Assembly (NCBI GenBank): GCA_008632985.1
Contig: QPGO01000008.1
Span: 538,979-602,978 of the forward strand
Origin: Psammoneis japonica
Lineage: Eukaryota
DNA length: 64,000 nucleotides
Reading direction: 5' to 3'
Part shown: in pieces, positions 17,843-20,873 of the stretch
Position numbering within the stretch: the first letter of the stretch is position 1
Layout of the letters: each line of letters starts with the position of its first letter
Made by a program: the position numbers and the translations under genes
Notes under the pieces: model-generated
The model's database searches: none
What the model was told of the DNA's origin: nothing
What the model saw: the letters and a program-made list of their open reading frames with translations, nothing else

Positions 17843-20800
17843 ATGACCGGAGCAGCCGACTTCCATCCACACATGAAGCGCCCACACTCGAAAGATCGTC
17901 GAAAACGATTTCTGGCCCACTTTTTGTCTCAGAACGATCCAAACACTCTGGGACGATTTGTTGTTTTGTCGTGGAAACGCACAGGAACCAACCTGTTGTG
18001 TGGGATTTTGCACCAGCATCACGAAATCATCATGCATGACGAACTTTTCAATCCCATTGACACATTTTCTTATCATCCTGCCGTCTTTTCTGATGAAGGC
18101 TCAGATGGGGGACCCCCCTCCTTGGGAACAACACGGGGCCCTCGCTGGACCGTGCTCACGCGAGACCTTTTCCCCGAGGATTTCTTGGATTGTGTTTGGA
18201 TGGGATCCCATCCCAGTGGTGCTCGCATCAAACCTCGCGGCAAAGTTGTGGGCTTCAAATCATTTCCCGAACACTGGAATGATGTGCGAAACCAAGCAGC
18301 CTTTCAGCGCGCTCTACTCGAAGATTTTCGAATCAAGAAGATCCTTTTGTCTCGCGATGATGAGTTGGCTGTTCACGTTTCTATGCTGCGAGCAGATCGA
18401 ACAGGAACTTACTCAACACACGCTTGCCCAAGAGATTTGAAGCTCTTTGTCGACCCTGCCAAGTTTCAATCCTTTCTATGCAACTGCCGCACAACTTTTG
18501 GTCGCCGGCACAAGTCTCCGATGATTGGACGGGATGCATTCTCGCTTGCATGCGAACAGATGGTTGACGATGAAGAGCACTTTTCGAGTGAAGTCCTTCC
18601 GATGCTGTGTGAATTTTTGGGGGTCGATCGCTCAGTGCCTCTCAAAAAGCTCCGAGAAATGGTCAAGCAAGCCAACCCGGACGAAGACCTTTCTCAAGTC
18701 ATCAAGAACTACGAGAATTGGAGTTCTGTTTTCGCCACAGTGACGTCCTTCATTTCGTGAAACAGAGGGAGCATGCTGTGCATGCAAAAAGAGCCGATTC
18801 TAGTGTGAGGGGATGTGCTCCAGTGCCTCCCAAAGAACCTGCTACATGGAGCCCATTGTTGCCTGTCTGCTCTCGAGGCAAATCCCTGCAGATCCCTGGC
18901 AAACACCAAGTCAATGCCAAACACGAATGCAATGCGAATCGCTTTGTAGAACTGGCAAAAGCGTCTCAGCACGAGCCAATTGCACAGTTGGAAAACGCTG
19001 CCTTGTGTTGGTCAATGTTGGAAGACTTTGTCGAAACGTTGGTGGCGACGTCCTCTGACACCCAACTACGAAGAACTGAGGCTATCTTTGGAATCGACAT
19101 TGATGACCCACTTTGCCAGAACGATGCAGCGCGGCATAAAATTGAACGCATGGTGCCTTGCAAAGTCAGGTTCGTGAATGTCAAGCCAGAAATGTACGGA
19201 AAGCTTTGTCGAATTTGGAATTTGCTTGCGAAACACTCAAAACACGACTTTGTCGTCCCACTCGGCGACGACATTCGTTTGCTCGACCCTGGGTGGCAGG
19301 AACGAATTGTCGAGAAATTTTGTCGCATTGCAGAAAGGACAGGCTCCCATTGGGTGCAGCATGTGTTGCAATGAACGACTTGTGCTTTCCTGGCTTTCCC
19401 ACCTTTCCTGTCATGCATCGTTGGCACATTGATTGCTTTCGGACACTTCTCCCGAAGCAATTTGTCAATCAGGGTGGAGACCCTTGTCCACATGAACTCT
19501 GCTCTTGCTTCAATGCGGCGGAGTTCGTACAGTGTTGCAGACTCCGAAATGCAATTGGCGGCGATGGCGATGCCCGCTGCCAGAAGCATCACACAAACTG
19601 GAGGGGTCAGATGCTCAATGTGGGTCTGAGGCATCTTCGCAACGAGCTTTGACTTGGCACACCTCGAGGGGTGGTCCTGGACATCGTCGTGCCATCATGC
19701 CGAACCAACAACAATGAACACCTGGAACGAATTGTTCGCCTCCGTGCCTCTGTACCAGCTCACGTGAAATTTTGGATCGTTGTGGACAACCCCTTGGATG
19801 CACATGCAAAAAGCGTCCAAGAACTCGCCCGTCGTCTAAACGAAGAGCAGCTGCGCTTATCCAGCAGTTGTTTCATCAATGTGATTCACTGCGGTGCCAA
19901 TCGCGGGGCTAGTTGCGCTCGAAATGCGGGGTGCAATTGTTCGACTGCAGATTGGATTCTCTTTCTTGATGACGACGTCATTCCAGACGAGAAGCTTCTC
20001 GACGCACATGTTGGCAGTCTACGTTGGCATCCCGACGGAAAGGTGTTTGTTGGCTACACTGAGCTCCCAGAACCAACGAATTGGTGGACAAAGATGCTAC
20101 GAACTTGCAATGTTGGGTGCTTTTACGGCATGGCAAAGCAAAACACTATGACAAATCTGCCGTGGGGAGTTGCTGCGAATCTCATGGTCCGCGGATCACG
20201 CTTCAACCCCACAATTCAGTTTGAGCATGTCCACCCAAAAACTGGTGGTGGGGAAGACATCGATCTTGTCTGCCAATGCAAGAGCTGCTGCCCAATGTCA
20301 GGCATGCGAGCAACTGTCGCTGTCCCAGAAGCCAGAGCATGTCATCCATGGTGGAACAACGGCAACATTTGCTGCAAGCAGATTGCGGGGTGGGCCAAAG
20401 GTGATTCGCTGTGCATCACAGAGTGGCCCGAGAAGACTTTTTTTGCGTGTCCAAATTGGATTGAGCACATCTTGTTTTTCATTCTACCTGGGTCAATCTA
20501 CAGTCGACGTCCCCTTGCAGGGCTTGCTGCTGCGGTGAGCGTTGTCGTCCTGGAGCATGGTCTCAAAGGCATGAGATGCTACCTTGACGCCTGTCAACAT
20601 TGCGGGGACGGCAGCTCTTGGTTGCAAAGATCTTTTGCAGCAGTTGGAGCCGGGACCGCACTCTCGTCTCAGGAGACAACTCGAACGTTGTGCTTGACAT
20701 CTCGTTTCTCTCCGCACTCCCTCTTCCGTCACGTTGACTGGTTCGATGGCCAACAACCGACAATCAAGCTTGACATTCAGCTTTCTTCCATTGTTCGTTT

Positions 20801-20873
20801 TGCTGTCAACATTGGCATTTCATCTGCAGCACATCTGTTTTGCACAAGAGGAGCCCAGGAAACTTCCGCCTGA
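17843..20873 (+). pseudogene. Hypermutated Stf0-type sulfotransferase + GT-A domain + GT2 glycosyltransferase fusion gene
   Basis: PAPS-loop WKRTGTNLL and VVGFKSF; GT-like GDDIRLLDPGW..PGFPTFPV..FVNQGGDP; GT2 LDIVVPS, NRGASCARNAG, WILFLDDD, GGGEDID; frameshifts at about 18716 and 19345; in-frame TGA at 19650 (probable CGA); start codon uncertain. Confidence 0.82.

Follow-up and report, generated by a model that had tools for sequence, protein, structure and literature searches.

A TpA-depleted remnant of a sulfotransferase-glycosyltransferase gene in a sharply bounded domain of a diatom genome

The stretch of Psammoneis japonica DNA analysed here (GenBank assembly GCA_008632985.1, contig QPGO01000008.1, positions 538,979 to 602,978 of the forward strand; all 64,000 nucleotides are called the window below) carries at 17843-20873, on the plus strand, a damaged gene of about 1000 codons whose parts are spread over three reading frames, as located by tblastn with the 998-amino-acid orthologue P0003. 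Comparison with its relatives identifies it, at the level of sequence, as the remnant of an ordinary diatom host gene in which a sulfotransferase-like domain precedes a GT2 glycosyltransferase domain. Most of its tyrosine codons now read as cysteine or histidine codons, and the gene lies inside a sharply bounded domain (about 4250-23500) that has lost most of its TpA dinucleotides to TpG and CpA. The parts of the gene are as follows:

17843-18715, plus strand: piece A, N-terminal sulfotransferase-like (NodH-like) domain, with the ATG at 17843 (P0003 residues 1-287 match 17843-18733)
18716-18717, plus strand: frameshift 1, 'gag aa ttg', where a Glu codon has lost one base (the orthologues have N-Y-D/E-E-L-E-F in the alignment)
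18718-19344, plus strand: piece B, middle domain kept in diatom orthologues (P0003 residues 282-512 match 18715-19407, in another frame)
19344-19346, plus strand: frameshift 2, 'ggc(c)tc', where a C is lacking after ...ARETG and before LPLGAAC when the sequence is set against the alignment
19347-20873, plus strand: piece C (P0003 residues 488-984 match 19332-20831, through one stop)

Piece C comprises the FPGFPTFP/GDPYLYELY block, an in-frame TGA at 19650-19652, the GT2 domain (19671-20873) and a C-terminal hydrophobic part. The Pfam family PF00535 (GT2) is recognised in it with a score of 45 bits (cut-off 23.3, E 1.4e-11); FLDDD is retained in this domain, and the nearby tyrosines of GASYARN and GYNYS are replaced. 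At the N-terminus of the window's own sequence PF13469 (Sulfotransfer_3) gives a weak match below its cut-off (13.6 bits against 27). Some of the relatives have PF13469 or are named 'LPS sulfotransferase NodH', and the NodH-like sulfotransferase label used here for the N-terminus denotes a resemblance rather than proven membership. A search among longer proteins returned 95 relatives at E<=1e-40, the best of them 66-69% identical. All relatives that have an organism name are diatoms (a Bacillariaceae metagenome-assembled genome, Cylindrotheca closterium, Nitzschia inconspicua, Seminavis robusta and MMETSP diatoms), and the annotation of some reads 'glycosyltransferase involved in cell wall biosynthesis / LPS sulfotransferase NodH'.

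The first-pass annotation of this DNA, which was made from the letters alone, had noticed Cys or His at places where Tyr would be expected. The orthologues agree: each of the ten motifs that it quoted has Tyr at these sites in the alignment, for example GASYARNTGYNYS in the orthologues against GASCARNAGCNCS in the window, GDPYLYELY against GDPCPHELC and VPSYR against VPSCR. Consensus columns were counted in the best 46 of the 95 relatives, excluding columns with a residue in fewer than 60% of the set, and a strict comparison used P0001-P0004, four of the 150 listed matches:

P0001-P0004 all in agreement, 297 columns: 16 Tyr, of which 3 kept, 8 Cys and 5 His
46 orthologues, consensus of at least 90%, 361 columns with 323 kept: 19 Tyr, of which 5 kept, 10 Cys and 4 His
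46 orthologues, consensus of at least 70%, 533 columns with 456 kept: 30 Tyr, of which 5 kept, 17 Cys and 8 His

At the 70% level the orthologues therefore have Tyr, and not Cys or His, at 25 of 30 Tyr columns that are changed in the window. Tyr is kept at 5 of 30 columns and the other residues at 451 of 503 (Fisher p = 1.8e-18), every non-Tyr residue class being retained at 68-100%. The composition of the gene is shifted in the same way: its 1008 codons include 8 for Tyr (0.8%), 47 for Cys (4.7%) and 46 for His (4.6%), against 3.0-5.0%, 1.5-3.0% and 2.1-4.1% in the orthologues, and sites at which most orthologues have Tyr account for 18 of the 47 Cys and 10 of the 46 His. The annotation's further statement that TA is reduced in the gene and CG largely kept is correct, since the observed/expected ratio (o/e) is 0.14 for TA and 0.85 for CG, compared with 0.40-0.71 and 0.77-1.08 in 15 ordinary open reading frames (ORFs) of the window. 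The retention of Tyr (5 of 30) is close to the overall retention of TA (0.14 against about 0.5), and we therefore see no sign in these counts that selection spared the Tyr codons.

The changes at the 297 strictly conserved columns have a narrow spectrum. Among the 49 mismatches, 22 require one TA>TG or TA>CA step, 5 one CG>TG or CG>CA step, 2 any other transition, 13 one transversion and 7 several steps; thus, 27 of the 29 single-step transitions are of the TA or CG type, and the transversions and multi-step mismatches fall mainly in the poorly conserved middle piece. The changes that do not involve Tyr obey the same rule: Leu>Pro (CTA>CCA) and Ile>Thr/Met/Val are found, Thr>Ala and Lys>Glu occur after a codon that ends in T, and the residue changes of the CpG type are Arg>Cys/Trp/His. 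Both strands were changed, as the annotation had concluded from its motifs: Tyr>Cys is seen 17 times and Tyr>His 8 times, and the counts of CA and TG per kb are about equal, with no strand bias. An enrichment at TA is thus present in the alignment, and the excess of 22 TA-type changes over 2 other single-step transitions and about 13 transversions points to a burst of mutation and not to slow decay.

The gene shares its composition with the DNA on both sides. In 1-kb bins, the background of the window has TA o/e of about 0.45-0.7, CG o/e of about 0.8-1.2 and CA/TG o/e of about 1.0-1.3; ordinary ORFs and spacers taken together have TA o/e of 0.40-0.92, and the ordinary intergenic kilobase 28001-29000 has 0.92. 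The depleted parts of the window, with the transposon-like element that adjoins the gene, are:

4250-15250: island 1, TA and CG nearly absent, CA/TG o/e 1.6-2.0, sharp left edge at about 4250
15250-21250: inner segment, TA o/e 0.05-0.21, CG o/e 0.72-0.97
15462-17661: element of about 2.2 kb, high-copy, bounded by terminal inverted repeats of 39 bp at 15462-15500 and 17623-17661 that are 95% identical (self-blastn)
21250-23500: island 2, TA and CG lost, both returning at about 23500
about 50500-55400: island 3, TA and CG lost, containing a direct repeat pair
about 62400-64000: island 4, TA and CG lost, continuing past the end of the window

Between 5001 and 15000 island 1 has 0-4 TA and 0-9 CG per kb, and there is not a single TA at 8001-10000. 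The old repeat islands have CA/TG o/e of about 1.9 (1.6-2.0), and the GC content of depleted DNA stays at about 0.49 (0.47-0.52) because the two conversions cancel each other. All domain edges (about 4250, 23500, 50500, 55400 and 62400) are sharp within 250 bp, and at the outer edges TA and CG shift together. The 6-kb inner segment, which consists of the inverted-repeat element and the gene, has lost TA and kept CG, while both are lost in the older islands; the loss of TA is therefore separable from CpG decay and, most simply read, is faster. This bears out the annotation's view that TpA loss is not a by-product of CpG decay.

Orthologous genes from metagenomes have TA o/e of 0.46-0.89. Across 677 kb of metagenome sequence surrounding relatives of the gene (79 loci, 1236 windows of 1 kb), TA o/e has a minimum of 0.24 and a first percentile of 0.34. 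The state of the gene is therefore abnormal, and, as repeat domains are rarely included in metagenome contigs, the process may still operate elsewhere. Two metagenome windows with CA/TG above 1.6 were rejected as candidates, such values being ordinary for their locus, L020, a contig of 65-74% GC.

The element at 15462-17661 ends 181 bp upstream of the ATG of the gene. Its word depth of 1100-4300, against 65 for single-copy DNA (17-65 times higher), marks it as a member of a high-copy family. For its variants at 15293-16851, 33 rows were listed, 6 of which were seen only in X2 and were dropped. At 11 of the 27 listed places that were used, the window has CA or TG and other copies have TA; at 7 of these 11 the other copies hold at least 0.68 of the depth. 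A further 6 of the 27 have TG or CA in the window and CG in other copies, and 10 are of other kinds. The copy in the window has thus lost TAs that its family has mostly kept, which means that the process is tied to the place and not to the family. Repeats within the window tell a similar story. Four diverged repeat pairs differ mostly by transitions, with 9, 5, 15 and 2 adjacent swaps of CA and TG and at most 2 of any other type; such swaps are what independent mutation of an ancestral TA or CG on either strand leaves behind, and therefore the copies mutated in place after insertion. The two terminal inverted repeats of the element itself differ at two places, each of them CG against CA or TG. 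Inspection by eye shows the triplet CTG at both ends of the element, perhaps as a target duplication of 3 bp.

The TA-poor sequence is real. The DNA run X1 contains 95% of the gene's sampled words, and a contig of 5940 letters built from its exact 31-letter words at a word depth of 65 covers 17636-23535 (5903 letters against 5900 in the window) with 7 other letters and 3 gaps. An exact-word contig at this depth is beyond the reach of error-prone reads, and base modifications leave the letters of accurate reads unchanged. The flat depth of 65.1 over 17701-21300 and the recovery of one contig at a minimum likeness of 80% mean that this part is single-copy. The process therefore acts on single-copy sequence, though a former duplicate may have been lost. 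Island 2 is likewise single-copy at a likeness of at least 80%; a part of island 3 is its distant relative (68%). The window and the X1 contig have the in-frame TGA at 19650-52 in common, and the 1-bp frameshifts at 18716-17 and 19344 may be assembly indels, the 3 gaps of the X1 contig amounting to a net gain of 3 letters. The seven differing letters are:

18478: window TA, X1 TG
18711: window TA (a Tyr codon, as in the orthologues), X1 TG
18712 and 19546: window CG, X1 TG or CA
20731: window CA, X1 CG (the X1 Arg codon is that of RRVDWFDG in the orthologues)
21174 and 22830: window CA or TG, X1 CG

All seven are transitions that interconvert TA or CG with TG or CA, and there are none elsewhere in the 5.9 kb. 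Pyrimidine-purine steps take in about 49% of positions, so that the chance of seven out of seven is about 0.007 if all are taken as transitions. The derived state is in the window at some of these sites and in X1 at others, a pattern expected of a process that is ongoing in two diverging lineages or alleles.

The remaining dinucleotides indicate the sequence context in which the changes occur. Counts in all depleted parts together and in the background, the depleted DNA having about 0.8 times the length of the background, were 18 and 38 for TTAA, 13 and 42 for TTAG, 12 and 51 for CTAA, 10 and 66 for CTAG, and 5 and 107 for GTAC; GTAT, ATAT and ATAC fell to 0 from 105, 83 and 93, respectively. 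Sites of the form YTAR (Y, pyrimidine; R, purine) thus survive best and the RTAY sites GTAT, ATAT and ATAC are gone, from which we infer that, on each strand taken singly, mutation favours an A in 5'-T-A-Y-3' over one in T-A-R. This preference would make the Tyr codons (TAY) good targets on the sense strand, in keeping with the larger number of Tyr>Cys (17) than Tyr>His (8) changes. In the islands, the CG sites that remain are fewest after T (TCGC 3 against 126, TCGG 3 against 102), few also in CCGA (1 against 104) and most frequent in the GCG and ACG contexts (GCGC 12 against 82), a hint that a 5' T is favoured by the C>T process too.

The TA o/e of the gene (0.14 against a background of about 0.5-0.6) and its CG o/e (0.85 against about 1.0) translate into a loss of TA that is roughly ten times faster per site than that of CG, provided that both began together in the 6-kb segment. 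Per remaining site of the gene, the window and X1 differ at 2 of 26 TA and 3 of 168 CG, a contrast in the same direction but based on few events. Two rates within one domain explain all three states of the DNA, background, TA-depleted and doubly depleted, without a wider spread of TA loss. An outside estimate of the rate comes from mutation-accumulation lines of the chlorarachniophyte Bigelowiella natans: the 211 mutations, 6169 TpA and 3132 generations given in the part of the preprint available to us (Mettrop et al., bioRxiv 10.64898/2026.01.13.699255) correspond to about 1e-5 mutations per generation at each TpA. With this rate, a loss of 75-80% of TA, as in the gene, would require a time of order 1e5 generations, a figure extrapolated across lineages.

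The loss of TA also reshapes the reading frames of the domain. On both strands of 4250-15250 we counted 29 TAA, 9 TAG and 509 TGA, compared with 407, 466 and 988 in 26 kb of ordinary DNA. TAA and TAG are nearly absent from the islands because TA is gone, and therefore each of the six frames has long ORFs; 16000-23000 is overlapped by 57 ORFs of 60 amino acids or more.

Some further features of the window stand apart from these results. The ordinary genes in the neighbourhood are eukaryotic (a proteasome subunit, a serine carboxypeptidase, Rft1, and DOT1-like, UBA and TLDc proteins); the best matches of the serine carboxypeptidase are about 70% identical, and the named ones are diatoms. A 74-bp tandem duplication, 98.6% identical, occupies 39088-39228 in the spacer of the divergent serine carboxypeptidase and Rft1 genes. 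Three ORFs that border depleted domains (3072-3941, 24320-25018 and 49209-50198) have TA o/e of 0.46, 0.43 and 0.42, near the lower limit of the range of 0.40-0.71 for ordinary ORFs of the window, which could be a faint edge effect or chance. The direct repeats of island 3 (52757-53018 and 54333-54592) are 76% identical, with 51 transitions among 56 substitutions and 15 CA/TG swaps, and a weak Gag-type zinc knuckle (zf-CCHC, E 0.0017, below the cut-off) lies between them at 53961-54350; together they may be the remains of a long terminal repeat (LTR) retrotransposon.

Conversion of TpA in this direction, confined to this place, acting in place and present in the real sequence, is what the locus displays. 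We consider it probable that the gene lies inside a repeat-nucleated domain that undergoes regional TpA>TpG/CpA hypermutation at a rate above that of CpG loss, and that a deaminase and silencing are behind it. The domain would be silenced chromatin. The transposon, by landing 181 bp upstream of the ATG, would have joined two older islands and put the gene under silencing. An enzyme would deaminate adenine in 5'-T-A-(Y) DNA to inosine, which is read as G, as was proposed for B. natans. On both strands TpA is converted to TpG or CpA far more rapidly than other substitutions occur, and the slower conversion of CpG to TpG or CpA would be due to deamination of 5-methylcytosine. Old parts of the domain have by now lost both dinucleotides, and the 6-kb segment has so far lost about three quarters of its TA and little CG. 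Since a TA>TG/CA change abolishes TAA and TAG and never generates a stop, the frame stays largely open while Tyr, Ile, Leu and other codons that contain TA change. The suggestion of the first-pass annotation that this process can destroy a gene other than a transposable element lying between repeats stands in part: reading frame apart, a host gene in the domain has been altered at 38 of the 361 columns conserved at 90% or more, and mutation may have followed the silencing of the gene as well as caused it.

Several points weigh against this account. The weak excess of Tyr>Cys fits the TAY preference, yet the purine that the preference predicts before Tyr>His sites is found at 4 of 8. The contrast between TA and CG in per-site polymorphism involves 5 events, and X1 may be the assembly's own sample, in which case the seven differences would be alleles or residual assembly errors and not independent lineages. 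Pfam gave no transposon domain, with 0 of 67 stop-to-stop ORFs (at least 110 amino acids, in about 25 kb of islands) above the cut-off; the sub-cut-off matches in island ORFs, IcmQ (E 0.0057) and the zf-CCHC knuckle, are noise or a faint lead. We read the repeat nature of the islands from read depth, terminal inverted repeats and weak self-similarity. We infer the enzyme, the chromatin mark and the methylation, as well as the order from insertion to silencing to mutation, from the pattern of changes. Lastly, a mechanism acting on the thymine side would give the same symmetric signature.

In such a mechanism a modified T at the palindromic TpA, for instance 5-hydroxymethyluracil made by an enzyme of the TET/JBP type, would by mispairing or faulty repair lead to T>C on either strand. 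The 5-hydroxymethyluracil in dinoflagellate DNA is enriched at TpA. Because TA is palindromic, the strands would be affected equally, as is expected of a symmetric mark such as CpG methylation, and the coincidence of the TA-loss and CG-loss edges at the outer borders suits this as well, while the contrast between RTAY and YTAR fits adenine and thymine chemistry alike. We nevertheless think it unlikely, since the only experimental precedent, in the text available to us, proposes deamination of A (bioRxiv 10.64898/2026.01.13.699255) and no evidence for such a modification in diatoms was met in this analysis. It is doubtful, too, that a single deaminase with a 5'-T preference acts on both T-A and T-C-G, with C as a poorer or methylation-dependent substrate. 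The shared outer edges, the scarcity of residual island CG in TCG contexts relative to GCG and ACG, and the deamination of both A and C in DNA reported for ADAT2 enzymes (as cited in the part of the same preprint available to us) are in its favour. However, the inner segment, with TA lost and CG kept, makes the two changes at least kinetically separate, the C target is set by the following G (3') and the A target by the preceding T (5'), and CpG decay in methylated repeats requires no special enzyme.

The adenine-deaminase account is challenged more radically by the idea that nothing is targeted at all, TA and CG being the most mutable sites genome-wide, the islands and the dead gene then being old DNA that has evolved neutrally to mutational equilibrium, with TA and CG maintained elsewhere by selection. 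The background TA o/e is indeed already below 1 (0.40-0.71 in ORFs). Edges sharp within 250 bp, an intergenic kilobase (28001-29000) with TA o/e of 0.92, family copies of the transposon that mostly retain their TAs, the ratio of 22 TA-type changes to 2 other transitions and about 13 transversions at the 297 columns, and 0 of 1236 metagenome windows below 0.24 make this very improbable. Still less credence is due to an artefact in which a long-read base-caller miscalled modified bases in repeat DNA that was left unpolished: although seven TA/CG-type transitions and three one-letter gaps against X1 look like the residue of long-read error, the exact-word X1 contig at depth 65 has the same TA-poor sequence over 5.9 kb, and at 4 of the 7 differences it is the window, not X1, that holds TA or CG. 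ADAR-like A-to-I editing of transcripts followed by reverse transcription and reinsertion would account for the T before the edited A, given the 5' U preference of ADAR mentioned in the Discussion of the B. natans preprint (bioRxiv 10.64898/2026.01.13.699255), but the strands are changed equally, the signal runs unbroken over an inverted-repeat DNA transposon, over a host gene and the spacer before it, and over old, unrelated repeats, and repeat copies diverged in place; we regard it as scarcely tenable. GC-biased gene conversion was ruled out, as it has no TA specificity and CG>TG/CA goes the opposite way.

If the deaminase account holds, it can tentatively be taken further. It is possible, though we would not call it the expected outcome, that diatoms and chlorarachniophytes share an old defence spanning the stramenopile-alveolate-rhizarian (SAR) lineages, in which a 5'-T-A-Y DNA adenine deaminase is recruited to silenced domains and erases TpA within about 1e5 generations, some ten times faster than methyl-CpG decay, killing host genes that a transposon has dragged in. 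If true, the defence would remove TAA and TAG stops along with Tyr codons, and the TA-only and TA-plus-CG states would be a built-in clock for the age of silencing. The locus is a natural time series as it stands, with untouched genes, a segment in which TA is gone and CG kept, and islands in which both are gone. Within the literature searched, TpA-specific hypermutation has so far been described in one preprint on one rhizarian alga, and a saturated footprint in a diatom suggests that the process may be widespread among major marine primary producers. It can take out a conserved host gene, as the sulfotransferase-GT2 gene appears to illustrate. There are practical consequences as well. Long open frames in depleted domains (38 TAA plus TAG against 509 TGA at 4250-15250) will mislead gene callers, and transposon proteins in such domains become unrecognisable, as the 67 ORFs with no Pfam match above cut-off illustrate; dinucleotide scans are a cheap way of locating such domains.

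Among known systems, APOBEC3 and ADAR of animals have single-stranded cDNA or RNA as their substrate, and the trace that they leave is strand-asymmetric. They resemble the process described here in being driven by deaminases that produce context-dependent clusters of transitions as a defence against viruses and retroelements; the trace in P. japonica, unlike theirs, is found in chromosomal DNA and is symmetric. In ascomycete fungi, repeat-induced point mutation (RIP) changes C to T mainly at CpA, creates TpA and AT-rich DNA and requires duplication. It, too, is a hypermutation by transitions at a specific dinucleotide; it ruins repeats and can reach adjoining single-copy genes. Its chemical direction is the opposite: here TpA is destroyed, CpA and TpG are created and GC stays at about 0.49, and in place of the gain of TpA and AT enrichment typical of RIP the depleted DNA has TpA o/e of 0.00-0.2, CpA/TpG o/e of 1.6-2.0 and GC of 0.47-0.52. 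The gene, moreover, is single-copy in X1 at a likeness of at least 80%.

The restriction of CG>TG/CA to repeat islands resembles CpG decay in methylated transposons by deamination of 5-methylcytosine. Diatom transposons are methylated by DNMT5a (PMC9998398), and methylation of this type can account for the loss of CG and not for that of TA, which occurs where CG is intact (15250-21250); the available text of that paper does not contain 'TpA'. In mutation-accumulation work on Phaeodactylum tricornutum CG is the most mutable context, and the text available to us makes no mention of TpA (PMC6604790). We found no description of TpA-targeted mutation in diatoms in the literature searched, and the B. 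natans preprint was the only match to the signature.

In the B. natans lines, according to the portion of the preprint accessible to us, 231 of 302 nuclear point mutations fell in two integrated viral regions, nearly all being A>G or T>C at TpA, and in the hypermutable regions the rate per site and generation is about 6e-7 (Mettrop et al., bioRxiv 10.64898/2026.01.13.699255). The giant-virus region, a single-copy sequence, is silent in transcription, and hypermutation occurred in only some of the lines. The long-term trace is a depletion of TpA with a gain of CpA/TpG, for which an ADAT2-like A-deaminase was proposed, and the phenomenon was read as a defence against invading DNA (bioRxiv 10.64898/2026.01.13.699255). 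The likeness to P. japonica is close: the giant-virus and virophage inserts of B. natans also have TpA>TpG/CpA on both strands, in delimited regions that include single-copy DNA, and the same long-term trace. Changes here are almost restricted to TpA>TpG/CpA when non-CG transitions are considered (22 against 2), with 5 of the CG type besides, and the regions are delimited by edges sharp within 250 bp with ordinary DNA beyond. The differences, as far as the accessible preprint text allows, are that the host is a diatom, a stramenopile, and not a chlorarachniophyte; that the targets are repeats, a transposon and a host gene and not viral inserts; that depletion is near saturation (0 TA in 2 kb, compared with a Rho of 0.45 there); and that CpG is also erased in the old parts, whereas the words 'CpG' and 'stramenopile' do not occur in that text. 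The preference for TAY over TAR is a feature seen here, B. natans being compared through the same text. What the P. japonica locus adds to the B. natans system is thus a diatom host, saturation, a slower coupled loss of CpG, the TAY preference and the collateral loss of a host gene.

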